Origin: a virus
Length of the DNA stretch: 64,000 nucleotides
Virus record (IMG/VR): IMGVR_UViG_3300045988_095445
Reading direction: 5' to 3' (one strand)
Part shown: one piece after another, positions 43,700 to 55,708 of the stretch
Numbering within the stretch: the stretch's first letter is position 1
Layout of the letters: the number at the start of each line of letters is the position of its first letter
Notes under the pieces: generated by a model
Database searches by the model: none
What the model was told of the DNA's origin: nothing
The model's input: only the letters and a program-made list of their open reading frames with translations
Position numbers and translations under genes: made by a program

Positions 43700-43822
43700 A
43701 CAACAGAAAAGAGGGGCTAGCTTATGGCTAGCCCCTCTAGGGTAATCAAGGTTTTGCAGAACCTCAATCATACATATTGCATTTATAAATGAAATATATA
43801 TAAACACCGCTGCAACGATGGA

Positions 43823-43898
43823 TGGTTGCGGGTATGAGAATCGAACTCATTCCTCAAGCCTTATGAGGGCTGCGACTTAACCACTTGTCCTACCCGCA
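43823..43898 (-). tRNA. tRNA-Met/Ile2 (anticodon CAU).
   Basis: Acceptor TGCGGGT/ACCCGCA, A73, CCA; anticodon loop CTCATAA; T-arm ATGAG-TTCGATT-CTCAT. Confidence 0.65.
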
Positions 43899-43937
43899 AT
43901 ATATAAAGCAGTTTTAAGACTTGCTTAGGTCTTTATA

Positions 43938-45059
43938 TTAAAGGTCAATATACTTATTGACTCCATAAATTGAAACCTTAGTAAAGGTTGCATTTTCAAC
44001 CCTTACTTTTTCGTTAAATTCCTTTCTAGCCTTTGCACTCTCTTCCTCAGTGGGATAATCATAATCGAAAGCATCAAAATCACAATAGAAATTAGCATCT
44101 ACGCCCATAAGTACGAGAGTACCATCCATAGATTTAATCTTTCCTGGATCAAAAGAAAGGTAGAAATCATTCTTATCTTTTTTAAACCGAAGACACTGAA
44201 CCTCTTTGGCATAAAGATCGAGATTATAATTATATGCAGTCATAACCCAACCATTAGTCAAACGAACATTAACATCAAAGAGAACACCTCTCTCATAGTT
44301 AATATTCAAATCCATTAAGGTTTCCTCCAAAGGATAACCCTGTTTCAAATCAAAAGCAATAGCCCTTAGGGCATCATAAGTGATGTCTGCGACCTGCGAT
44401 AACTTAACAACCTTTTCAATTTCCTCTTCCTTGCCGCTTCCAAGCGCATCCATCATATATGCCCGTACTTCATCTGCGGTAGGACAGCCAATCTCAAAAT
44501 GATAGTGAAAACGACCAGGGCGATTGATAAGAAATTCGTTCAATTTTCTTGTATCGTTACAAGTGATAACAAAAAGTTTCTTTCCATTATCAATCCCATC
44601 AAATAGACTTAAAAGTCCTACCTGCGGATCGCCGTCATCATTCCTGGCAAAAGTCTTTTCAAACTCGTCAAAGATAATAACAACTTCTTGTTCAATGGAA
44701 CTGAGGAAATTACTAATTCCGGGAATAGGAGAATCAACTACAATCACTGGCATTTCTCGCTTGATTGCGGCATCCGCGATCATTCTTGCAAAAAGAGATT
44801 TGCCAATACCTTTCTTACCAGAAAGAATTATACCAAAGTTTCGCTCGGACTTATCGAAAGAGTTGAAAACTTTCTCTACCTTATGACCATGCGAGCCATA
44901 AACTTTTTCTTCGCCAATCTGCAAATTATTATGAACAGAAAGCCAAATTCCCATTTGGGGATGGAAACCGATTGTATAAGTTCCGATTGGTAACTCTTTA
45001 TAAGTTTTTACATCGTCACCATATACCTAAAAACGATTTCCTGTATGGATAATATTCAT
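43938..45059 (-). CDS. AAA+ ATPase with one in-frame TAG (45027-45029).
   Basis: GKKGIGKS Walker A, IIFDEFEK Walker B, NRPGRF sensor; the ATG at 45057-45059 is in frame with track ORF 43938..44954 across the TAG. Confidence 0.55.
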
Positions 45060-45088
45060 CTATTTACTTCCTTTCCTATTATTAGATG

Positions 45089-45176
45089 TGGTGGGCCAGG
45101 AGGGAATCGCACCCACTCGAGCTCGAAAGCACCGGTTTTACAGACCGGGGTGTCTACTTTAGCACTTTACTGACCC
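45089..45176 (-). tRNA. tRNA-Tyr (GUA), class II.
   Basis: Anticodon stem CCGGT/ACCGG, loop CTGTAAA; 88 nt; CCA. Confidence 0.65.
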
Positions 45177-45194
45177 ATATATAAAAGAATTGTT

Positions 45195-45281
45195 TGGTCC
45201 CGGAGACGGGACTCGAACCCGTACGAGATTGCTCTCAGGGGATTTTAAGTCCCCTGTGTCTGCCAATTCCACCACTCCGGG
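45195..45281 (-). tRNA. tRNA-Leu (UAA), class II.
   Basis: The anticodon loop reads TTTTAAG on the plus strand (codon TTA); 87 nt; T-arm ACGGG-TTCGAGT-CCCGT. Confidence 0.65.
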
Positions 45282-45366
45282 ATATTGCACATTTTTATGC
45301 TGAGTTGTGCTTCTCACCTTTCTCTTCTTCTTCCCCGGCGGATGAAAGTATCTCCGGTGTATTCGG

Positions 45367-45483
45367 CGGGGAGTGCAGGACTCGAACCTGCGACATCGTG
45401 CACCCAAAGCAAGTTAAAGATTGCTGTTACGGTCTTTAACAAGACCAAACTATAACGCGCTCTACCAACTGAGCTAACTCCCC
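45367..45483 (-). tRNA. tRNA-like gene (Lys/Ala-like acceptor, D- and T-arms) with an insertion of about 45 nt in the anticodon region. Possibly an intron or a disrupted gene.
   Basis: Perfect acceptor GGGGAGT/ACTCCCC, D-arm GCTC-AGTTGGTA-GAGC and T-arm GCAGG-TTCGAGT-CCTGC. The 117 nt total includes an 8 bp perfect hairpin (GTTAAAGA...TCTTTAAC). No encoded CCA. Confidence 0.4.
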
Positions 45484-45729
45484 ATATAAACGATTTTGGA
45501 TAAGGTTAATCGAGAACCTCGTCAGTGTGCTACTACGCCAAAGGCGAGCCCTGCAGGTTTACTCGCCACTCTTTAAATGGTGGACGCTTTCAATCCTACA
45601 TCCTGACAATAGAAGTCTTATTTACGATTTCTGTGCGTATTGCTTCTATTACTGGCACCGCTTCTTCGTGTTGAACGAAAACTTCTTGGTTCAGAGCCAA
45701 GCGTGCAGACCGCTACACTAAAGCGGTAT

Positions 45730-45803
45730 ATGGCAGCGGATAGAGGGGTCGAACCTCTAACAAGGGAGTCAAAGTCCCGCGTGTTACCATTACACCAATC
45801 CGC
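45730..45803 (-). tRNA. tRNA-Gln (UUG).
   Basis: Acceptor AGCGGAT/ATCCGCT, G73, CCA; anticodon loop CTTTGAC. Confidence 0.6.
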
Positions 45804-45885
45804 TATAAATCAAGACGCATTAAAGAAAAGACTGTTTATCAGACAGTTGCGTAAACCATTCCGCCAAAATCGCTAAGCGCGATCC

Positions 45886-45925
45886 ACAGGATTCGAACCT
45901 GCATCTTCTATTAAGAAGAATTTGC
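45886..45925 (-). pseudogene. Truncated tRNA remnant (hairpin + T-arm + 3' acceptor strand only).
   Basis: GCAGG-TTCGAAT-CCTGT T-arm and 3' acceptor strand GGATCGC, but no 5' acceptor strand or D-arm. Preceded by the conserved TTTGCTGTATGCGTCTT motif. Confidence 0.3.
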
Positions 45926-46164
45926 TGTATGCGTCTTTATTTTACTTATATTTTAATTACACTCGCTGCTATATCGCAGTTGAACAAATCGTCATAAATC
46001 TTCTCTAAAGAAGCATCTTCATCAATGGTATATCCATTCAAAAGAGAATGTTTCTTTAGAGCTTCTTTTTCTGATTCAGCAGTAATCTTCTCTAACTTAA
46101 TTTCATTTTCAAAGAAACTAAGAACTCCAACAACAAAATTCATAATTTTCTTCTAGACTTTAAG

Positions 46165-46240
46165 TGGTACCCGGTGACGGGCTCGAACCGCCGACCTCCG
46201 CGGTGTAAACGCGATGCTCTCCCAGCTGAGCTAACCGGGC
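46165..46240 (-). tRNA. tRNA-Val (UAC).
   Basis: D-arm GCTC-AGCTGGGA-GAGC; anticodon loop TTTACAC; CCA. Confidence 0.65.
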
Positions 46241-46706
46241 ATTTAACTCAGAAAGATATTTTTAAATTCGTTCTCAAGCATAAAGAAAACTTCGCTCGCG
46301 CAACCACCTTTGCCGACTTGAACATAAGCAATCATAACATCTCCAGAGTCAGCATCGAAACCACGACAAATAGTCTTAACAAGACCATAAGGATTAGCTC
46401 GATAAAAGCAACCCATAGCAACAAAGTTATTCTTCATATTTAAGACTTCCTTTCTCAACTTTCTATAAATATTATATCATTTATTTTTAATATTTTCAAA
46501 AGTTTCTAAAGACTAGACTCAAAAGGGCTTGCCCCATATGCTCAACATTTTCTTGGCTTCCCTTCAAAAAGAAAATGCTTCTTAGCTTTCTAAATAAGAT
46601 TTATTTAGTAAAATCTTTTTATACAAGTATATTTGCATATATTTGCTGTATTGAGTCTATATATATAGGAAAGGAGTGATACATATCCTCGCTCCCTAAG
46701 AGCGAG

Positions 46707-46783
46707 TGGTCCGAGTGGTGAGACTCAAACTCACGGCCTCGTGATCCCAAATCACGCGTTCTAATCAACTGAACTACACCCGG
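46707..46783 (-). tRNA. tRNA-Pro (UGG).
   Basis: Anticodon stem CGTGA/TCACG, loop TTTGGGA. Confidence 0.65.
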
Positions 46784-47059
46784 ATATTAACTTAGGGTTT
46801 TTCGCACTTCCGCAGATTTCCATGCCTGGTCCTTATCGTTTCCTCTAGTGCTATACGAGGCACCGACCCTAAACCCTTCTGCTCTATGCCGGTTGTGTAC
46901 TGATACCGGAAAACATCTTGGGGACTTTATTTTTTTACCTTCGTTGCTCCAATCCTCGAAGGGTATCTCGAAGTATAGCTCTTCTATTTTACTGGCTCGG
47001 ATTTAAGGCCCTACGATTTATTCTTACTGCCTTTCAGACTTGTATGTAAGATACCAATA

Positions 47060-47147
47060 TGGCGCAGAGAGTAGGATTTGAACCCACGGATCTTTCGACC
47101 TCCTGCTTTCTAGGCAGGCGCCATAAACCAGACTCGGCCATCTCTGC
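47060..47147 (-). tRNA. Class II tRNA with anticodon AGA (Ser, unusual A34).
   Basis: Anticodon stem GCAGG/CCTGC, loop CTAGAAA; 88 nt; acceptor GCAGAGA/TCTCTGC. Confidence 0.5.
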
Positions 47148-47151
47148 ATAT

Positions 47152-47227
47152 GGTACGCCAGAGAAGATTTGAACTCCCACAAGCTAGGGTCCGTAGCCCT
47201 GTGCACTCTCCGTTATGCTACTGGCGC
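47152..47227 (-). tRNA. tRNA-Arg (ACG).
   Basis: Anticodon loop CTACGGA. Confidence 0.65.
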
Positions 47228-47301
47228 ATATACTAGACCCATCATCTTTTTCTCCAGTTCAAACAACAGGTAAAGAGTTCTTTGCAGTACGGGTCTAAAT
47301 T

Positions 47302-47754
47302 TTAATTACGAGTACGTAACCAATAATTTTTCATCTTGTAATTTGAATCATCCGTCACTTCAATAGCATCATCAATAGGAAACTGATAGTCGCGGGCCTG
47401 CTCCTCTGATTCAAATTCAATTTCTGCATAGATAAAAGCTCCATCATCTACTACAGAAACCGTGAGCGGATACCCGCCGCAATTAAAAACGGAATAATTT
47501 TTCTTAATTGGAGATTTACCGACAAAATCTTTTAGCTGATTATAAAAATCTTCCGAAATTTCTGCTTCAATTTCTTCTCTTGTTAAAGACCCTTCACCTT
47601 TTACGGTAATTCTAAAAGGCTCTTTACTTGCCGGGTTATGTCGTAATCGCACTTCTGGATTCGTCGAAACATAAAATTGTTCTACCTGAGAATTTTTTAC
47701 TAATCGAAATTCGGTAGGAACTCTTTGAAGAATCCACTTTCTTTCAATTTCCAT
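47302..47754 (-). CDS. CYTH-domain triphosphatase/cyclase-like protein.
   Basis: MEIERKWILQRVP start (the EIERKW... CYTH N-terminus); 150 aa. Confidence 0.45.
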   Translation of the reverse strand: MEIERKWILQRVPTEFRLVKNSQVEQFYVSTNPEVRLRHNPASKEPFRITVKGEGSLTREEIEAEISEDFYNQLKDFVGKSPIKKNYSVFNCGGYPLTVSVVDDGAFIYAEIEFESEEQARDYQFPIDDAIEVTDDSNYKMKNYWLRTRN

Positions 47755-48037
47755 ACGAATCCTCCATCAAATAATCTTCATCTTCGTAAAGAGTGTCTTT
47801 TATAATAACACACTCATACTTATTATCTCTCTCCGCAGAAGCATCAAGAATGATTAAAGGCTCTCCTCCTACAGTAGTTTTGGAAAAAACTCTCGCAGCG
47901 ATGTTCATCGCTTCCCAAGGAGAATTTGCTACTAAAAGAACATTCCGCTTAAATACTTTACTTTTTATTGTCTTTAATTTAACTGAGACATTAAAAAAGT
48001 ATTCCATAATAAATCCTTTCCTATTTTTATTATTAAC

Positions 48038-48353
48038 TGGTGGAGCCGGCGGGAGTCGAACCCGCGTCCGAAACACCTATATAATTAAAGTCTTTTCACA
48101 CGATAGTTAAACTTTATCCACTAAGTAGGATAGGCTTTAACAAACCACACTCCGTTAAGCGTACTGGTTTACCTCCACCACTTTGTTTAAAAGAGTAAAC
48201 AAAGAAACTCAAGGGTTAAGCGGCGAGCTTAGCTCAAGCCGCAAGATAATTCTCGAAATAATCGTTGTCAGTTAATTTTTGTTGCCCCTTAAGGCGGTGT
48301 GCATACCCGTGAACTTTAATCCTTCAATGCCCCGTCGAAACCTTTACGGCCCC
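48038..48353 (-). ncRNA. ssrA: tmRNA (ssrA), phage-encoded.
   Basis: 5' end GGGGCCGTAAAGGTTTCGACGGGGCATTGAAGG and 3' end GGACGCGGGTTCGACTCCCGCCGGCTCCACCA match the tmRNA tRNA-like domain. The internal tag reading frame ends ...AACGATTATTTCGAGAATTATCTTGCGGCTTGA (NDYFENYLAA, then TGA stop). Confidence 0.75.
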
Positions 48354-48424
48354 ATGTGACCCCTCTTGTTAATTATATAAGCAAAAGGGGTATATAACAC
48401 TTCAAGAAATTTTGTCCTGCGGAC

Positions 48425-48499
48425 TGGTGGGCCACCGAGGACTCGAACCTCGTCCCGTAGGGCTTCAACCTACTGCTCTGCCCGTTAAGCTAATGGCCC
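48425..48499 (-). tRNA. tRNA-Phe (GAA).
   Basis: Anticodon loop TTGAAGC. Confidence 0.65.
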
Positions 48500-48580
48500 A
48501 TAGGCTCTCTATGTGAGGCGATGCTCAACTCACAACCAAGACGCGCGCTCTTGTGTTTTCCACTTTTAAACTAATAGAGA

Positions 48581-48657
48581 TGGTACCCCGTATTGGACTT
48601 GAACCAATGACCTACCGCTTAGAAGGCGGTTGCTCTTTCCAGCTGAGCTAACGGGGC
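48581..48657 (-). tRNA. tRNA-Arg (UCU).
   Basis: Anticodon stem ACCGC/GCGGT, loop CTTCTAA. Confidence 0.65.
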
Positions 48658-49188
48658 AAATAAGGAGCATTAAGCTACTCCAGCTTTTCTTGCTACTCTT
48701 GCAAGAATTTTATAGTCTGTGCTATCTTCTGCAACCAATTTACATGGCTTTCCAATTAGAGCAAATAAACCAAGCAGACTACGAGCATCAACCATAATCA
48801 TACCGTCATTAGAATGAACCCAAAGTACATCTGGAGTTTTACTCGCTACGGCATTTAGACGCTCAATATCACTTGTGCTTTTGATATTAATATCCATTAC
48901 CATTTTATCGACCTCCTTTTATATTCTCCATGTACGAAACTCTTTGAACTGCTCTTCCAGATCTTGTTGATAGTTATAAACTTCGAGAACCCGTTGCATA
49001 TTTAAACTATTGGTTCTATCAATAAGACTAATCGCTTCATTTCTATCAACTGCATAAATAGGGTAATCTTCAAAGGAAAATTCATCAACTGCAATAATGC
49101 AGTATTGATTGATACCATTATCACCATGGATTACCATATCGCGAACTTCTGCATAACTTGCTATAGACATGGTACTCTCTCCTTTTAT

Positions 49189-49263
49189 TGGCAGGGCGAG
49201 TAGGATTCGAACCTACAGTCATGGTTTTGGAGACCATTGGTTTAGCCATTAACCGATCGCCCT
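49189..49263 (-). tRNA. tRNA-Trp (CCA).
   Basis: Anticodon loop CTCCAAA. Confidence 0.65.
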
Positions 49264-49502
49264 ATGTAAGCTGAGCGTCCCCAGCCCTAATCGAGTTACT
49301 TTGGAGCTGCTTCCACTGACGGGCGAACTCGATAAACAAAAGCCTTTTGTTCTACACTCTAGTCAAAGCAGCATGACACCCTAGTGTAGCATGGCCTCTG
49401 TGGTCTTTGTCCCACAAAGAATTTTTCGAACCGAACTCTTTGCACATGATAGAATTTTGCGTTAGGTATTCACCCTGCCATCTATCAAGGCTGACATTCG
49501 GT

Positions 49503-49579
49503 TGGTGCTCCGAGGCAGATTTGAACTGCCGACCTCGCGATTATCAGTCGCGTATTCTAACCAACTGAACTACCGAAGC
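49503..49579 (-). tRNA. tRNA-Ile (GAU).
   Basis: Anticodon loop CTGATAA. Confidence 0.65.
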
Positions 49580-49805
49580 ATATAATAGGTTCGTTTCGGC
49601 GTCACACGCATTGAGGAGAACCATTTCCCCAGTCTGAGGCCTTAGGGCATACCTCGACAACAGCCCAGCGTTATGTCCGCCAACAGAAAGTTTTTTGACA
49701 CCCAGTTTATCACTTTCAACTTTTCCGCCGAAGAATGGCGTGGCTTTCCTTTATACACCTCCGAGGAGGAGCTTCCCGCAGTCTATTCGCCCCGGCTACG
49801 AGGGG

Positions 49806-49881
49806 TGGAGCAAGATACCGGATTCGAACCGGCCCTTTCTGCTTGGAAGGCAGACGTGCTAGCCGCTAACACTAATCCTGC
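49806..49881 (-). tRNA. tRNA-Gly (UCC).
   Basis: Anticodon loop CTTCCAA; T-arm ACCGG-TTCGAAT-CCGGT. Confidence 0.65.
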
Positions 49882-50150
49882 ATATGGTAGTTTCCCTGTT
49901 TTTTAGAGGTACTACCTAACCCAAGTCGACTTTGTCGTTTGTTCACAGATAACCCGCTCAAACAAAACAAACCAAAATGCGGAGATGAACGAAATTGTTT
50001 TCTTCTTCTTGAATCAGAGAATCGTCATCAAGTTGTCCCTAAGTCATGCAGTCTTCGTAACGCCAGACTACCAGAAACGCTACTCGGTTTAACCTTGACT
50101 GAAAATTCTCGTGCACAGAATAACAGTTGTGTCTCACTCAAGAGTAGAAA

Positions 50151-50227
50151 TGGTGCGTGTGGCGAGATTCGAACTCGCGACTCCCTGCTTAAAAGGCAGG
50201 TGCTCTAGCCTACTGAGCTACACACGC
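50151..50227 (-). tRNA. tRNA-Lys (UUU).
   Basis: Anticodon loop CTTTTAA. Confidence 0.65.
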
Positions 50228-50741
50228 GACTGTAAACTTTTAAAGTTCACTTAGGATATTATCGAGAATCTTTTCAAAATCTTCATCCTCAACATAGAAC
50301 ATCTCATTCATAGTTTTACGATCAGTAAGAGAATGATCTGCATTATATCTACAAACTAGCACTTCAAGAAATTGCCAAAAGCGCAGATTTGGATTAGTCT
50401 TTCGCCAAATAACCTCAATCTTATTAGCAATACTAGAAATGCGATTTGCGTCTCTCACACTTAATCCTCCTCTAGCCACATATCTTCACTAAACAATTCT
50501 CGATATTTGTCATCATCGACAATTAACTGTCTACATCTGCGGGCTTCAGGCTTTGCGTCGTATCTATCAAGGAATTTAGCATCATCAGTCAAGAACCCTT
50601 GCACTAAATCTTCTTTATCCCATTCATACCCCATCTGATATGCTTCTTCGAGGCAATCTGCATGGCGCTTCCCGCAAATAATTACAGGGTACTTACTAAA
50701 GTGAGGAATAAATTTAATTGCAGAAGCAATAATCATAACTC

Positions 50742-50812
50742 AAAACTTCCTTTCCTTAACTTTCTATATATATTATATAATAAAAATTAAGAATTTTCAA
50801 AAAGATTTTTAT
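50742..50812 (-). promoter_or_regulatory. Representative copy of the conserved promoter-leader: TTGAAA-N17-TATAAT-ATATATAGAAAGTTAAGGAAAGGAAG (minus strand).
   Basis: The minus strand reads cTTTTTGAAAattcttaatttttattaTATAATatatatagaaagttaaggaaaggaagtt-ATG. About 20 copies in the window, each just upstream of a minus-strand gene start (20188, 21831, 23571, 29222, 38041, 46442, 54641, 55232, 59431, 60391, 62852 and others). Confidence 0.6.
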
Positions 50813-51013
50813 GCTTGAGTTTTCTATTAAAGGAACCTTTTCCTTTCTTTGCTCTTGTTATAGAACCTCTCTGTTTAAAATGAAGATATTCTTGCAGCTC
50901 TTCTGGAGATTTCTTTTGAGCCTGCTTTATAGTTTTTAAATTCATTTTACTAGACCCCTTTTCATCTTATTATGTACCAAAAACATATGATTTAAAGTTG
51001 CTGAATAGGTCTA

Positions 51014-51089
51014 TGGGGTGTACGACGAGACTTGAACTCGCACCTCTCAGAGCCACAATCTGATGCTCTACCAATTAAGCTACGCACAA
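51014..51089 (-). tRNA. tRNA-His (GUG), with C73 but an imperfect 5' terminus/G-1 context.
   Basis: Anticodon loop TTGTGGC; D-arm GCTT-AATTGGTA-GAGC; the 1-72 pair is mismatched in my fold. Confidence 0.55.
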
Positions 51090-51271
51090 CATATTAGCAA
51101 TAGATTTTAATATCGGGTATTAGCCTCCGGCCTTTGCGCTCGGAATTGGCGGTACAATTCTCTGCGCCCTATCTAACCCTATCCGACTCGATTTACCATA
51201 CGGACTGCTTGATAAAGTGGCCACAATATCTTGCAGGCTTTCTTGCCGCGTTTAAACGCCTCTGCCGAGGC

Positions 51272-51347
51272 TGGAGCTGGATAAGAGACTCGAACTCTTA
51301 ACCTATCGCTTACAAGGCAATTGCTCTACCTATTGAGCTAATCCAGC
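51272..51347 (-). tRNA. tRNA-Thr (UGU).
   Basis: Anticodon loop CTTGTAA. Confidence 0.65.
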
Positions 51348-51430
51348 GTATAATGGCCGGTATAAACCCCGGCTCGGGTTAAGAAAATCGACAGTATGCT
51401 CGTTTCCGCACTATACACCAACCGCCAGCT

Positions 51431-51694
51431 TAATCGCCGGCCGTATGGGAGTCGAACCCATTCCTCTGTCTTTCGGTTTTGGCCTTCTCTTCCCCATAGG
51501 CTCCCGCAGCAGTACCAAAAAACTTGACGAGATTATATTGAAGTTGTTTTTGTCTCATTGAGACCGGCAGGCGGCTATACTTCCAAACCTTCACAAGCCC
51601 TATTATTTCGTTAATCGCTTGTATTATCACCGCAAGCAAACGGAACTACTTAGTCGGTTTTCGTAGTTGACACAATAGCCTCGTTTATATGCGG
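51431..51694 (-). ncRNA. Unassigned structured RNA candidate: 264 nt closed by an 8 bp GC clamp, with a canonical T-arm next to the 3' strand.
   Basis: 5' GCCGGCCG ... ATGGG-TTCGACT-CCCAT-A-CGGCCGGC 3' on the minus strand. No D-arm and no CCA. Internal GTCTCA-ATG-AGAC hairpin. The overlapping track ORF (69 aa) looks spurious. Confidence 0.3.
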
Positions 51695-51731
51695 CCGGCA
51701 TATATAACAGTGTCTTATCCCGATTGGCTAT

Positions 51732-51824
51732 TGGCGAAGGGGAGAGGATTCGAACCTCCGGACCGTGTTTCCACAATCAAGGGATTAGCAATCCCTCGCA
51801 TTCAACCTACTCTGCCACCCCTCC
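51732..51824 (-). tRNA. tRNA-Ser (GCU), class II.
   Basis: Anticodon stem AGGGA/TCCCT, loop TTGCTAA; 93 nt. Confidence 0.6.
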
Positions 51825-52222
51825 AAATATGTTTCCTCTGCGTTTTATGGGCTTGGAACCATCACCTATCGGCGGCCGCATTAAACATAAAAGTTATCTA
51901 TCACTATGAATAACTTCTGTTTCTGCGAAAATGAAATCATCAATATCCATCATTTTTTAATACCTCCTTAATTTATTTTAATCGGTAGTGCCATTCTAAC
52001 AGCCTATCTTGCACTTTTGATAGGTTCCCGATTCGCTAGTCTTTTATATATAAATCTCTATTGAGAAAATAATCGGTGCCAACTTAATTTTTTAACGAGG
52101 TCGTTGACTTCCATCCCCGAACCCTTTTCGTTACTCCAGATTTTATCTCTCAGCCAGCCGATTTCTTTATACAGCGCTATATAAAGCTGCTTCAACTGAG
52201 CCTTTAGGTTCTTGGCACCTAA

Positions 52223-52297
52223 TGGGTGCGGGAGCGAGAATTGAACTCGCGTAATCGAGTTTATGAGACTCGACTGGGAACCAACACCCTTCCCGCG
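52223..52297 (-). tRNA. tRNA-Met (CAU) with a C1:A72 mismatch (initiator-like).
   Basis: Anticodon stem CGAGT/ACTCG, loop CTCATAA; 5' CGCGGGA against 3' TCCCGCA gives C1·A72. Confidence 0.55.
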
Positions 52298-52609
52298 ATA
52301 TACAGCTATTAGAATTAAATTATAATGAAACCAAAATATATTTTTACTACTTAACGCCTAGACACTCTTGAGTTGGTCTGCGTTGCCACTCCTCGCTTTT
52401 TATTCTCGCCTCATATATTCTATATTTTGGAATAACTCTAATAGCCACGGTACTCTTGCGCCCCTCCGCTGGATGTATCAGCCGGAACCGTTTCACTTTA
52501 ATTAAGCAAGGGCGTGCCACATATCAATAATTCATTCTTGCCGTACCATACTCTACGCACAAGAAAGGCCCGTCTTTTCTTTCACTCGAAACTGTGGAAC
52601 CCATACATC

Positions 52610-52687
52610 TGGTGACCTTGGAGGGATTCGAACCCATCAACCTCCACCTTGAGAGGGTGGCGACTTTGCCATTTCGTCGACAAGGCC
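52610..52687 (-). tRNA. tRNA-Glu (CUC).
   Basis: Anticodon stem GGTGG/CCACC, loop CTCTCAA. Confidence 0.55.
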
Positions 52688-52991
52688 ATTTAAAGAGCAG
52701 TTTATTGACTTGCTCAGGTCTTTTAGTTAATCGCTAAGTTCGACGGCGCCGCATTTAGTGAACACCTGCACGGGAGTTCCGTTCAACTCGTTGTCCTCAA
52801 GAATGGAATAATCACAAATATAAACATTTGTATTACCAATCTTGCGAAGCGGGTTTCCGCAATTAGAACACTTACGTTCCTTTTCCACATTCTGCGGAAC
52901 CTTAATTCCGAGAGCCTTACCAAGCTCTGCGAAAGAGTTGAACTTCCCGTGAACATTCTTCATAATAGCAATCTCCTTTTCTATTGTTTAA

Positions 52992-53066
52992 TGGTACTCG
53001 GTACGGGAGTCGAACCCGTGTTTCTGGCGTGAAAGGCCAGCGTCTTTACCGCTTGACTAACCGAGC
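52992..53066 (-). tRNA. tRNA-Glu (UUC).
   Basis: Anticodon loop CTTTCAC. Confidence 0.65.
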
Positions 53067-53318
53067 ATATCTGCACTTTTAATAATCTCTTTCTGTCTTA
53101 TTTAATAATAGCTATTGTTTATTATAAGCTATACTGTCATTACTATATATAAAGAGAATATTAACTTATCTTCTAGTTGGTGAACAGCGGCGTCACTGAA
53201 AACCACCTATTTCTATTAAGGACGGAAATAGGAATGCCCTATTGTTCTTATGGCAATGAAATCAATAAAAACCTGTAATCATTAGACGGTATCATATATA
53301 ATTATTAGTAGATACCTA

Positions 53319-53394
53319 TGGTGGAACATACGAGGGTCGAACTCGTGACCTCCTGCTTGCAAGGCAGGCGCTCTCCCAACTGAGCTAATGCCCC
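53319..53394 (-). tRNA. tRNA-Ala (UGC).
   Basis: D-arm GCTC-AGTTGGGA-GAGC; anticodon loop CTTGCAA. Confidence 0.65.
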
Positions 53395-53608
53395 ATATTG
53401 TGATTAAGATGATTGGTCGTGTCAATCAAGGAGAACTACGCTCTAATTTATCGGCTACTACAGTCCAATGTGCCAGGCATCAACCTAAAAGGGACACCGC
53501 ATTGCTGATTCGCTTGCGCGCTATCGCTGCCTATATACGACTTGCGATACTTTGTTCTTTCTTAACCTTACATAAATATTATACAATATTTTTTATTGTT
53601 TTTCAAAT

Positions 53609-53685
53609 TGGCGATGACGACGGGGTTTGAACCCGTGACCTTCGGCGTGACAGGCCGACGTTCTAGCCTACTGAACTACGCCACC
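53609..53685 (-). tRNA. tRNA-Asp (GUC).
   Basis: Anticodon loop CTGTCAC. Confidence 0.65.
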
Positions 53686-53789
53686 GTATAAGGCGAGGAA
53701 GGGTCGTACGCACCCCGTGTGCTTTGCGCCTCGCCGTTCACATATATCACACTTCTGACTTATTGGGCATGGGAAATCAGTAGAAACCA

Positions 53790-53876
53790 TGGTGCGCATG
53801 ATGGGACTTGAACCCATACGCTCTTACGAACACGAGCACCTCAAGCTCGCCTGTCTGCCGATTCCAGCACACGCGC
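53790..53876 (-). tRNA. tRNA-Leu (GAG), class II.
   Basis: Anticodon loop TTGAGGT; 87 nt. Confidence 0.6.
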
Positions 53877-54034
53877 ATATTTCTATGGTATTGATCGAGT
53901 TCCAAGGCTTCCTCTTTTAATACTGACTAGCCATCATAAATGCTTGGCCATTTACGACAAGAAATCCAGTCTTCAACTACGGGCCATAGCTCCGCCGGTT
54001 ATATGGGTTTAAGACAATGTCACCGGAACCATCT

Positions 54035-54110
54035 GGTGTTCCCGGCGGGAGTCGAACCCGCAACATCATGGTTCTAAACCACGCGTGTCTGCCTATTGCA
54101 CCACGAGAAC
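54035..54110 (-). tRNA. tRNA with anticodon UAG (Leu by anticodon), class I-like with a large D-loop.
   Basis: Anticodon stem CGTGG/CCATG, loop TTTAGAA; 76 nt. Confidence 0.5.
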
Positions 54111-54236
54111 ATAAAAGAGCAACTATTTGTTTCAGAACTACCCGTCGCTCTATTGGGCCAGCCTATTATTTTAGTTCGCAGTGGACGAATTGAGAGTTTA
54201 GGGTTAAAGTCGCGGCGCTACTCACAAACTCGACTT

Positions 54237-54313
54237 TGGCGGGAAGGGTGGGGCTCGAACCCACGACATCTTGCTTAACAGGCAAGCGCTCTACTCTTCT
54301 GAGCTACCGACCC
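54237..54313 (-). tRNA. tRNA-Asn (GUU); two mismatches in the acceptor stem.
   Basis: Anticodon loop CTGTTAA; D-arm GCTC-AGAAGAGTA-GAGC. Confidence 0.55.
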
Positions 54314-54718
54314 AAGCTCAAGGCAGAATAAATAAACTTTCTTAAACCAAAAATAAGTGTTTTATTTAATAAAAGATTTGCTGTGTCTGCCTTATATAAA
54401 TATTATATAATATTTTTTATTGTTTTTCAAAAAAGATTCAGTTGTTTAGCTTCATCATAAGAAATACCAAAGGTATCCTTGAAAGTTGCGTTAAAGTTCT
54501 CCCACTGTTCCTCGGGGCCACCAACTCCACCATTCATAAGCCAAATAGCATCACAAATACTATCCTCATTTTTATAACAAGAAAGAGCCTCGGCCGCGAG
54601 TTGTGCGAGATATAACTTCTTATCCATATGCAACTTCCTTTCTTACTTTCTATAAATATTATATCATATTTATAAAAGTTTTTCAAATGTTTTCAAGACG
54701 CTAGCTATTTAGCTCCGG

Positions 54719-54795
54719 AAATCGGATTCGAACCGATAATTTTTCACTTTGAGTTGAAATGTCTTAACCATTTGACTATTCTGGAAATAGATTTG
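54719..54795 (-). tRNA. tRNA with an 8-nucleotide anticodon loop (ACUCAAAG; contains CAA/UCA).
   Basis: Acceptor TCCAGAA/TTCCGGA; T-arm ATCGG-TTCGAAT-CCGAT; anticodon stem TTTCA/TGAAA flanking an 8 nt loop. No encoded CCA. Preceded by the TTTGCTGTATGCGTCTT motif. Confidence 0.45.
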
Positions 54796-54847
54796 CTGTA
54801 TGCGTCTTATAGCAAGAGGGCCCTCCTATTGGGTCTGTCCTCTTAAA

Positions 54848-54923
54848 TGGTACTCCGAGCTGGACTCGAACCAAGCATCAAGCGATTATAAGTCGCCCGT
54901 TCTAACCTTTGAACTACCGGAGT
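54848..54923 (-). tRNA. tRNA-Ile (UAU).
   Basis: Anticodon stem GGCGA/TCGCT, loop CTTATAA. Confidence 0.55.
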
Positions 54924-55708
54924 ATAGATAAAGTGAGTATTTTATTTAACGCATATCAGCCTCACTCACGCCTTACCCGTGCAATTATTTATAGTTACTG
55001 TCGATAACTTATATAAATATTATATAATATTTATTTTTATTTTTCAAATAATCAATAAGGAGTAGATGTTCCATAAAGACCAGTAATATCAATATCATTA
55101 CATAGATCTCTAGTCACACAAGTTTCAAGTTCTGCCTGAGAAATAATTTCTTCCTCCGCTAGAGGTTCATCACTCTCGATAGTAGCAAGGATAGTGAAAG
55201 AAACTGCATAAACATATTTACTCATAAACTCAAAACTTCCTTTCCTTAACTTTCTATATATATTATATAATAATTTTTTTTATTTTTCAAGGAAGCGTAA
55301 GTTCTAGAAAATATTTCTCTTACGCTTCCCTTTTAGTAAGGAAGTTTGTACTATTATTAAACTTTATATTAAATATCTTAATTACCCATACCCAAAATTT
55401 TTAATCAGTAATTCCCAACTTAGCTTTAAGCTCCTCAATCTTAGCTTTATCCTCTGGAGCCAACTCAGTTGGAGCAAAACTATTCGCGGATGGAGTATCA
55501 GAACTTGATGTAGAGAGCGTACTATCTCCTCCGCCCGCAATCGGTGTCTTAGGCATTGTAAGTGATACAGCAATCTGAACAACTTCTCCACTCGCTCCAT
55601 CTTTTACTGAAATGTAAATCTTTTTATCCGAAACAAAAGAGCCTTCAAATGTTGAAAGAATTGTCTTTGTAATTAGGTCTTTCGCGGCATCTCCTCGTCT
55701 AACTGCCA

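Follow-up and report, generated by a model that had tools for sequence, protein, structure and literature searches.

The 64,000-nucleotide (nt) stretch of DNA analyzed here, IMG/VR virus record IMGVR_UViG_3300045988_095445 (hereafter the window), comes from an uncultured phage and carries an island of transfer RNA (tRNA) genes with a transfer-messenger RNA (tmRNA). Interleaved with these genes is a family of RNAs whose two ends pair in a terminal helix, here called the handle, followed by the motif ACAGCAA. As a whole, the explanation that we favor, with moderate confidence, is a translation and RNA-maintenance island in which at least nine handle RNAs partner a Ro60-like DUF2828 protein. With slightly less than even confidence we further propose an undescribed, widespread class of phage Y RNAs (terminal helix plus ACAGCAA), cognate to DUF2828-type Ro60 paralogues and present in both uncultured TAG-recoded and cultured phages (Felix O1-like E. 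coli, P100/A511-like Listeria, Bacillus Nate and cluster-L-type mycobacteriophages). These RNAs would occur in interconvertible circular permutations, including a CCA-ending form in tRNA order with the protein-binding handle as its anticodon loop. The window RNAs described below, and the gene cluster at 26065-36246, lie on the minus strand.

The handle is a helix of 7-9 base pairs (bp) formed by the two ends of the RNA, 5'-(A/U)AGRCNN ... NNGYCU(U/A)G-3', with ACAGCAA directly after the 5' strand. Two RNAs that a sequence-only reading of this DNA had listed separately, as a tRNA remnant and as a tRNA with an 8-nt anticodon loop, have the 18-mer AAGACGCAUACAGCAAAU in common at their start and GCGUCUUG at their end (minus strand). 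With up to three mismatches, the first of these, AAGACGCAUACAGCAAAU, occurs four times in the window against 0.08 expected. For comparison we used 51 related IMG/VR loci (L-numbers below), found via the ATPase gene within the island at 31-99% identity. A strict frame was defined as (A/U)AGRC plus 1-4 nt, NWHCWGCA, the reverse complement of the first strand within 30-220 nt, and G; it occurs 152 times in the window and these loci, exclusively on the gene strand (152:0). The helix has constant outer pairs and covarying inner ones (GC/GC, CC/GG, UC/GA, AC/GU, AG/CU and others), while the enclosed cargo is variable, a tRNA mimic in long forms and A/U-rich sequence in short ones. The handle RNAs form a conserved family, confined to one strand and supported by covariation, in which the handle stays constant and the cargo is modular. 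That they are instead selfish or neutral tRNA-derived repeats, similar to miniature inverted-repeat transposable elements, or chance inverted repeats lacking an RNA function, is scarcely credible. Their multiple copies and the likeness of some cargos to degraded tRNAs (low GC, mismatches) would fit such an origin, but it is contradicted by the strand bias and the covariation, with compensatory changes in all helices, and further disfavored by conservation at syntenic sites down to ~42% protein identity, by presence across five phage lineages, and by a background frequency of only ~0.2 per 10 kb of strand.

Other readings of the handle were also considered. As a TATAAT box often precedes the handle, a promoter was considered, but covariation of the two helix strands speaks against it, as do handles that sit directly after tRNA 3' ends. 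Folds like those of hepatitis delta virus (HDV)-like, hatchet or pistol ribozymes, suggested by the way the handle abuts tRNA ends, were set aside: the 3' helix strand is terminal, nothing downstream pairs with ACAGCAA, and there are no Rfam matches to these families. At permissive thresholds, Rfam gave no ribozyme, riboswitch or YrlA match on any handle RNA of the window between 36 and 55.5 kb; a c-di-GMP-II match at 46517-46599 (E=1.3) is noise.

The window holds nine handle copies, two of which come from a relaxed search and inspection by eye. Four are short. One at 54319-54393 (AAGGCAG/CUGCCUU with ACACAGCAA) lies between a TATAAT promoter and tRNA-Asn; another at 50950-51013 (UAGACC/GGUCUA with UAUUCAGCAA) runs from the CCA of tRNA-His to the Shine-Dalgarno (SD) sequence and ATG of a small open reading frame (ORF). 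The copy at 47233-47297 (UAGACCC/GGGUCUA with GUACUGCAA) ends 5 nt before tRNA-Arg(ACG), and that at 37635-37710 (AAGACGC/GCGUCUU with UUUCAGCAA) ends 9 nt before a CUA suppressor tRNA. The frame search also returned a 147-nt RNA at 46513-46659 whose cargo is not tRNA-like (UAGACUCA/UGAGUCUA plus AUACAGCAA), and the 18-mer search a copy at 37048-37145 with one C·A mismatch in its terminal helix, which is perfect in L001. The remaining three, at 45811-45937, 45367-45483 and 54694-54808, contain the RNAs that, along the lines of the sequence-only reading, would be a decayed fragment (45886-45925), a spliced, intron-bearing tRNA (45367-45483) and a +1 frameshift suppressor (54712-54795). Taken together we consider those three assignments highly improbable, even though the phage does encode RNA ligases, for the reasons set out for each RNA below.

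The YrlA RNA of bacterial Ro systems has the order motif-V-T-acceptor stem (AS)-D, is encoded on the same strand as Ro no more than 4 kb away and is accompanied by a short YrlB (PMC4201824, Chen et al. 2014). The 127-nt RNA at 45811-45937 consists of a 9-bp terminal helix, ACAGCAA, a V hairpin, a T arm (GCAGG UUCGAAU CCUGU), a loop-closed 7-bp acceptor-like stem and a D arm, and has an extra anticodon-like arm (GAU). Its minimum free energy fold has a z-score of -3.1. Among 15 homologues of this subfamily, 95.9% of cells are paired, compared with 34-42% in slid registers, and compensatory changes occur in 16 of 23 pairs, values that 0 of 500 shuffles reach. By architecture this is a complete YrlA-type RNA. 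The hairpin and T arm noticed earlier at 45886-45925 do exist, but as part of a fully covarying fold and not as a remnant.

The 117-nt RNA at 45367-45483, identified by Rfam and by comparison, orders its acceptor, D and T arms as a tRNA does and scores 49.8 bits with the Rfam tRNA model, with 55 nt in the place of the anticodon loop; it ends in GCCG and has no CCA. The inserted segment comprises GGUCUU-GUUA-AAGACC, that is, a tetraloop-capped handle, followed by GUAACAGCAA and a hairpin. This arrangement is kept in eight divergent lineages with compensatory changes in 14 of 23 pairs, and a terminal encoded CCA and a 7-bp acceptor stem are found in most orthologues, an anticodon loop in none. 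Rotation of the RNA at AAGACC raises the number of its 117 nt that align to L030:2914-3044 from 62 to 97. The L030 RNA has an open handle and a closed acceptor stem, and Rfam YrlA matches it with 48.2 bits (E=1e-7). The rotation match indicates that 45367-45483 is, on sequence grounds, a circularly permuted YrlA-like RNA without an anticodon and not an intron-bearing tRNA. The intron mode of ARAGORN does give a tRNA-Lys(CUU) with a 42-nt intron, as the earlier interpretation would have it, but that model needs three G·U pairs in the anticodon stem and U37. Removal of the insert leaves no U33-type anticodon loop, nor is a canonical loop found in any of the 8 orthologues. No Rfam intron family matches at E<=1, a group I intron is excluded by the size of the insert (only 45-55 nt; the P3-P9 core needs at least ~200 nt), and no bulge-helix-bulge of an archaeal intron can be drawn around a canonical loop. 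Thus the tRNA-like match with a large insertion stood, but the insertion is a conserved, structured module. Further Rfam tRNA matches of 120-170 nt with big internal insertions (L042:7776-7943, L019:13122-13267, L030:13914-14049 and L026:16359-16481) may be additional tRNA-ordered handle RNAs. Next to the 117-nt RNA, an unannotated 170-nt stretch up to tRNA-Gln(CUG) (45484-45652) contains the hairpin GGCGAGUAAACCUGCAGGGCUCGCC; it is conserved in L002, L003 and L004 and has no Rfam match.

The tRNA order of this RNA raises a further alternative, namely that 45367-45483 and the tRNA-like cargos act as decoys or inhibitors of host nucleases that target tRNAs, or as aminoacylatable tmRNA-like RNAs, the Ro-like protein being uninvolved. 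The encoded CCA and 7-bp acceptor stems of most orthologues would be compatible with such roles, as would the position of the island next to an RNA-repair gene cluster and the finding that RNase P cleaves M. smegmatis YrlA, which also receives CCA (PMC4201824). On the other hand, the window copy ends in GCCG, the anticodon loop as the usual nuclease target is missing, short members keep the handle without any tRNA-like part, and the invariant handle is left unexplained. We regard this alternative as improbable and interpret the RNA as a permuted member of the handle family.

The RNA at 54694-54808 is a handle RNA enclosing a tRNA-like cargo of standard order, in which the 'anticodon' loop has 8 nt. 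ARAGORN labels it 'Leu-caa' (54712-54785) by forcing a 7-nt loop on a mismatched 6-bp stem. The 8-nt loop described earlier (54719-54795) can indeed be drawn, with a perfect 5-bp stem (UUUCA/UGAAA) enclosing ACUCAAAG, and this is the better fold; the 5' coordinate was ~10 nt off. As a frameshift suppressor the RNA is a poor candidate: the tRNA-like part has no CCA and an A·C acceptor mismatch, its GC content is 38% compared with 45-67% in real tRNAs, and its acceptor stem runs on into a further helix that embeds it in the handle. Orthologues have 7- or 8-nt loops with unrelated 'anticodons' (UAA, ACA, GCA, CCU), and no decoding constraint acts on the RNA. Another tRNA-like with an 8-nt loop ('UAAA' in ARAGORN; Rfam tRNA 36 bits) lies just upstream of the ATPase gene in L007:9797-9870, L011:9797-9870 and L017:6755-6828, and is not found in the window. 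Since these three RNAs belong to the handle family, three of the four odd members noted in the island are not decoding tRNAs.

The proposed protein partner is encoded at 34726-36246, 0.8-1.5 kb from the window copies at 37.0-37.7 kb. Pfam assigns DUF2828 and DUF7788/vWA domains to this ORF. A single-sequence structure model was unusable (predicted local distance difference test, pLDDT, 39), and AlphaFold2 with a 30-sequence alignment reached pLDDT 75. The latter model fits the HEAT-repeat ring with C-terminal vWA domain of Ro60 proteins, and there is also a weak VWA_2 match. In a Foldseek search against the PDB its top 11 matches were all Ro60/TROVE proteins over full length (E 3e-8 to 7e-6), including 9kop, 1yvr, 9l5y and 2nvo, with Xenopus Ro, Deinococcus Rsr and the Ro60 of Thermus phage phiLo among them. 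The protein is thus predicted to fold like Ro60, as the model shows. By tblastn it has homologues in 711 GenBank phage records and is ~35% identical to a mycobacteriophage 'Ro-like RNA binding protein'; the DUF2828 family returned >7,900 matches in one search. Within the clade, the DUF2828 gene is syntenic with the island.

The association was also examined in IMG/VR loci fetched solely by a 15-base motif and sorted by the closing helix. DUF2828 was found in 19 of the 57 loci with a valid closing helix (545 tRNAs in total) and in 1 of the 63 loci with chance matches (38 tRNAs in total). Handle copies also occur 50-1200 nt from the DUF2828 gene in four cultured, unrelated phages. Bacillus phage Nate has six copies, three of them within 550 nt upstream of the gene; Listeria phage LMTA-34 has three tandem copies 75-340 nt upstream; E. 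coli Felixounavirus adrianh has four between tRNAs just downstream; and Mycobacterium phage Wamburgrxpress has three in tandem directly downstream of its DUF2828 ('Ro-like RNA binding protein') gene, in a 13-kb stretch examined that has no annotated tRNA. In these phages the frame consists of a terminal helix of 7 bp, 1-3 nt plus ACAGCAA, and a G after the helix, with ACAGCGA or ACAGCUA in three Nate copies and GCAGCAA in one Mycobacterium copy. A stricter screen for exact CAGCAA gave, at each of the four loci, 3-4 copies on the gene strand and 0 on the other, against the background given above; the extra Nate copies come from a relaxed screen. In all these lineages except Listeria, short copies (47-70 nt) stand beside one long copy (~123-126 nt) with T, AS and D arms, which mirrors the pairing of YrlB with YrlA. 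Side-by-side occurrence of handle RNAs and a DUF2828 gene recurs in five phage lineages. Furthermore, four framed elements in relatives match Rfam YrlA (RF02553) below the gathering score of 69 bits (E 1e-7 to 4e-3), with 48.2 bits for the one in L030 and 39.5, 35.9 and 32.4 bits for three more, spread over L019, L026 and L042.

Several observations weigh against a Ro/Y-RNA partnership. Binding of the handle RNAs by the DUF2828 protein is suggested by their neighborhood and by analogy only. The protein is of DUF2828 type and has no Pfam TROVE (PF05731) match, Pfam giving DUF2828 and DUF7788 only; phmmer and hmmsearch against the PDB came back empty, and the likeness to Ro60 is one of fold only (template-modelling score ~0.55). 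Among the RNAs, RF02553 matches no handle copy of the window at E<=5, and the handle motif is (A/U)ACAGCAA and not the GNCGAA(N)G/CGAA Ro-binding motif of YrlA; ACAGCGAA is present in some handle copies only, such as those of Bacillus phage Nate. Nine copies within 18 kb, spread through a tRNA array, also exceed by far the 1-4 Y RNAs known per genome. In addition, DUF2828 genes usually adjoin tRNA arrays, and the associations of the handle with array and protein are in part confounded. Finally, many handles fill precisely the gap from a tRNA 3' end to the tRNA or ORF that follows, a position that would also suit a role in processing.

A processing role is the main rival, which we nevertheless consider unlikely. 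The handle would then be a processing or stability cassette of polycistronic tRNA/mRNA transcripts, a structured spacer for a host RNase or a non-Ro phage protein that sets transcript ends or the maturation of downstream tRNAs (notably tRNA-Gln and the CUA suppressor), with the tRNA-like cargo recruiting RNase P or RNase Z. On their 5' side the elements have either a promoter or the 3' end of a tRNA, and on their 3' side a tRNA or an SD-ATG: a TAnAAT box is found within 35 nt upstream in 59 of the 152 framed copies, 27 start <=5 nt from the 3' end of the preceding tRNA, and 66 end <=20 nt from a downstream tRNA, which in 36 of these is tRNA-Gln (20) or the CUA suppressor (16). The high copy number would also agree with a cassette. 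A type-P1 twister ribozyme candidate occupies an equivalent place at 51830-51887, 5 nt upstream of tRNA-Ser(GCU); its core nucleotides align to RF03160, its score of 51.7 bits (E=3.7e-9) is below the gathering score of 67.2, and it is present at the same site in L003:2273-2330 and L007:2942-3000. The candidate thus suggests that the phage does employ RNA-level processing devices. However, the DUF2828 gene, and not the space between tRNAs, is where tandem copies cluster in the Listeria, Bacillus and Mycobacterium phages, and this clustering, which extends to the Mycobacterium stretch without annotated tRNAs, weakens the case for a cassette. The long forms fit the architecture of YrlA and, in relatives, its covariance model; no ribozyme family matches the handle RNAs; and a mere spacer has no need for an invariant ACAGCAA.

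Under the explanation that we favor, sigma-70-type promoters on the minus strand of this TAG-recoded phage would drive expression of tRNAs for 20 amino acids, a tRNA(CUA) and the tmRNA, and the handle RNAs may be freed from the polycistronic transcripts by RNase P and by 3'-end processing of the flanking tRNAs. The Ro60-like DUF2828 protein (34726-36246) could then bind the handle, given its neighborhood and the analogy with known systems. The resulting ribonucleoproteins might act like bacterial Ro/Y-RNA complexes in tRNA surveillance or repair during infection, with the products of the neighboring RNA ligase, RlaP, phosphatase and major-vault-protein (MVP)-like genes as possible partners. 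The RNA at 45367-45483 would be the same fold in permuted form, with its ends in the acceptor stem and the tetraloop-capped handle in the place of the anticodon loop.

The window phage uses TAG as a sense codon. When it is taken as such, several broken regions become uninterrupted genes. In the DnaB helicase (2236-683), residues 101 and 405 are TAGs spanned by the N- and C-terminal Pfam domains; in an endolysin (15773-14319) with ten in-frame TAGs, the Phage_lysozyme2 and Amidase_2 domains run across such codons; and so does the NAGPA domain of a NAGPA/SPOR protein (16588-15731). Four contiguous tail-fibre-like ORFs fill 43306-39078, and these, like the GIY-YIG gene at 7127-6174, also contain in-frame TAGs. 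A CUA suppressor tRNA is encoded at 37550-37625, beyond the range of 43800-54930 that had been flagged as the island. At window TAG positions the orthologues mostly have TAG or Gln, Gln being the commonest residue opposite TAG, and at TAG positions of the relatives the window mostly has Gln. From this interchange TAG is likely read as Gln. Similarity of the suppressor to the phage's own tRNAs did not discriminate between identities (Trp 0.69, Met 0.67, Gln 0.67). The earlier claim that TAG is not a stop is borne out by the in-frame TAGs within domains and by the suppressor, whereas the basis given for it, the TGA stop of the tmRNA tag, is uninformative. The tRNA with anticodon UAG (54034-54110) is an ordinary tRNA-Leu that reads CUN, not a suppressor for the TAG stop codon.

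The array itself was analyzed with ARAGORN and Rfam models. ARAGORN made 31 tRNA calls and one tmRNA call in the window, all on the minus strand; 27 of the tRNA calls and the tmRNA fall within the flagged range, and 26 of these 27 are canonical, in agreement with the 26 standard-looking tRNAs reported there before. The tRNA total for the window is 31, covering 20 of 20 amino acids, with CCA encoded in every one and not just in most as first thought, and ATAT directly 5' of nearly every tRNA. ARAGORN, Rfam and the sequence itself agree on tRNA-Leu(UAA) (45195-45281), Gln(CUG) (45653-45727), Gln(UUG) (45731-45804), Val(UAC) (46165-46240), Pro(UGG) (46707-46783), Arg(ACG) (47151-47227), Phe(GAA) (48425-48499), Arg(UCU) (48581-48657), Trp(CCA) (49189-49263), Ile(GAU) (49503-49579), Gly(UCC) (49806-49881), Lys(UUU) (50151-50227), His(GUG) (51014-51089, with G-1 encoded at 51090), Thr(UGU) (51272-51347), Ser(GCU) (51732-51824), Glu(CUC) (52610-52687), Glu(UUC) (52992-53066), Ala(UGC) (53319-53394), Asp(GUC) (53609-53685), Leu(GAG) (53790-53876), the Leu(UAG) mentioned above, Asn(GUU) (54237-54313) and Ile(UAU) (54848-54923). 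Of the two tRNAs with anticodon CAU, tRNA-Met (43823-43898; ARAGORN, Rfam 52.8 bits) has U1-A72 and an encoded CCA, and the other (52223-52297; ARAGORN and sequence) has the C1/A72 mismatch described earlier. All of the individual anticodons singled out before, namely Ile(UAU), Glu(CUC), Arg(UCU), Leu(UAA), Leu(GAG) and UAG, are found at ARAGORN calls.

The class II tRNA with A34, the fourth odd member, is a clean tRNA-Ser(AGA) at 47060-47147 (ARAGORN and sequence) that is kept in L003 and L007. Non-Arg A34 tRNAs recur in the clade, as Ser-AGA, Cys-ACA and Phe-AAA (L007:6661-6730, L011:7574-7643, L019:5546-5617). A non-canonical class II tRNA-Tyr(GUA) with encoded ACCA lies at 45089-45176. ARAGORN misses it, and only the Rfam tRNA-Sec model finds it (33.2 bits), because of a T loop with the sequence UGCGAUU (G55) and a D loop without GG (G18G19); it has a long variable arm and is kept in L001, L004, L005 and L037. 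In L002 and L003 (L003:9373-9816) the tRNA-Tyr carries a 444-nt insertion after nt 37 that is nearly all ORF with in-frame TAGs, leaving too little RNA for a group I intron core. Outside the flagged range, ARAGORN found four further tRNAs at 36.5-38.4 kb: tRNA-Cys(GCA) (36490-36576; seen also in sequence), tRNA-Leu(CAA) (36721-36797; also Rfam), the amber suppressor tRNA(CUA) at 37550-37625 (G73 and a U1·U72 mismatch; also sequence) and tRNA-Ser(UGA) (38279-38366; also Rfam). These four tRNAs, the tRNA-Tyr, the twister candidate and the shared handle motif were not listed in the sequence-only reading. The tRNA-Cys has U73 and a long, class II-like variable arm; it is 87 nt long here and in L007, L011 and L017, and 77 nt in L003.

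The tmRNA was reproduced by ARAGORN at exactly the coordinates proposed for it, 48038-48353, and its match to Rfam RF00023 (113.4 bits) spans model positions 1-374, the full model. A tmRNA is expected to have a tRNA-like domain with CCA, pseudoknots and an internal tag ORF with a hydrophobic ..LAA end, and this RNA conforms; the tag, (A)DNDYFENYLAA (DNDYFENYLAA in ARAGORN), closes with GCG GCT TGA, and the 3' end of the RNA is GGCUCCACCA. No SmpB was found among the only ~25 window ORFs that were scanned against Pfam. An Rfam tmRNA_permuted match that overlaps the true tmRNA and tRNA-Phe is spurious, and Plastid-ycf2 and psbI-rps4 matches fall on the opposite strand of tRNA genes. The island is a genuine phage-type tRNA array with a true tmRNA. 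A promoter-like TTGAnn-N17-TATAAT followed by ATTTATAGAAAG recurs upstream of tRNAs and ORFs (for example 38090-38050, 54690-54640 and 54420-54394). The tRNA arrays of relatives contain ROOL RNA (L003:8080-8675 and L030:13316-13907; 350 and 313 bits) and RAGATH-33 (L019:12689-12801; 138 bits), neither of which was found in the window.

The window has a GC content of 36% and genes typical of a large tailed phage (gyrase A/B, PhoH-PIN, DNA ligase). Megablast of the island against 50,697 GenBank phages returned short tRNA matches only and no near relative. An RNA-repair-type cluster spans 26065-36246, with an RNA ligase (26065-27336; PHROG 968, Pfam RNA_ligase), a metallophosphatase (29291-30055) and an RlaP nucleotidyltransferase (30042-30845), and ends with an MVP-like protein of 813 amino acids (31874-34315; Pfam MVP_shoulder and Vault_3) and the Ro60-like gene, which adjoin here and in L003, L026 and L027.

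Each of the components is already known on its own: tRNA arrays, tmRNAs and Ro60 in phages, TAG recoding, and YrlA-like tRNA mimics. In the searchable literature we found no description of the ACAGCAA handle or of its link to DUF2828-type Ro paralogues, nor of its multiplicity in tRNA arrays or of a permuted, CCA-ending form, and no relevant paper on DUF2828 came up in a full-text search. Annotation of phage tRNA arrays commonly relies on tRNA finders alone, and here handle RNAs are missed or mislabelled as 'Leu-caa', 'tRNA-???' or an intron-bearing Lys. Recognition of the family is therefore of practical value for annotation, as false inferences of frameshift suppression and tRNA introns drop out. 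It also gives the DUF2828 family a candidate RNA ligand and a possible Ro60-like role. Felixounaviruses, Listeria Pecentumviruses and Bacillus and Mycobacterium phages offer tractable systems in which to study what a Ro/Y-RNA complex might do for a virus with its own tRNAs, tmRNA and RNA repair. The permuted pair is a rare natural case of one tRNA-mimic fold with its ends at either pole.

With regard to recoding, code 15 phages reassign TAG to Gln with suppressor tRNAs, and HDV-like theta ribozymes flank phage tRNAs. The window phage resembles the former in its in-frame TAGs in replication (DnaB), lysis and tail-fibre genes and in its own CUA suppressor, and the latter in having a self-cleaving ribozyme candidate directly beside a tRNA, although this is a type-P1 twister candidate 5' of tRNA-Ser(GCU) instead of an HDV-like ribozyme 3' of the suppressor. 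Arrays of tRNAs with a tmRNA are known from Bxz1-type cluster C mycobacteriophages and from huge phages. Like these, the window combines dozens of CCA-encoding tRNAs and a tmRNA in one block of a large genome beside a Ro-like gene; unlike them, it is TAG-recoded, serves all 20 amino acids and adds a suppressor, with handle RNAs and a twister candidate interleaved.

The closest parallels are with YrlA and YrlB. As in these, the ends of the handle RNA pair and a short conserved motif stands right after the 5' strand; long members follow YrlA in their series of arms (V, T, loop-closed acceptor, D); shorter RNAs lack the tRNA mimic, like YrlB; and a gene with a predicted Ro60 fold lies a few kb off on the same strand, in an RNA-repair context (RNA ligases). 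In a phage, too, such a pairing has a precedent, the phiLo Ro60 binding the phage Yrl RNAs Yrl1/2 (PMC12135203). Apart from the points weighed above, the handle RNAs differ from YrlA in that some cargos are full tRNA-likes in standard order or have an anticodon-like arm, and in that one form is circularly permuted to tRNA order with acceptor ends. The last feature may be compared with one-piece and two-piece (circularly permuted) tmRNAs and with the permuted tRNA genes of Cyanidioschyzon. The case described here differs from those in that it concerns a Y-RNA-like mimic without an anticodon and implies no circular intermediate or splicing, but it is alike in that one fold occurs in two circular permutations across related genomes, with its ends in either the acceptor stem or the distal helix.

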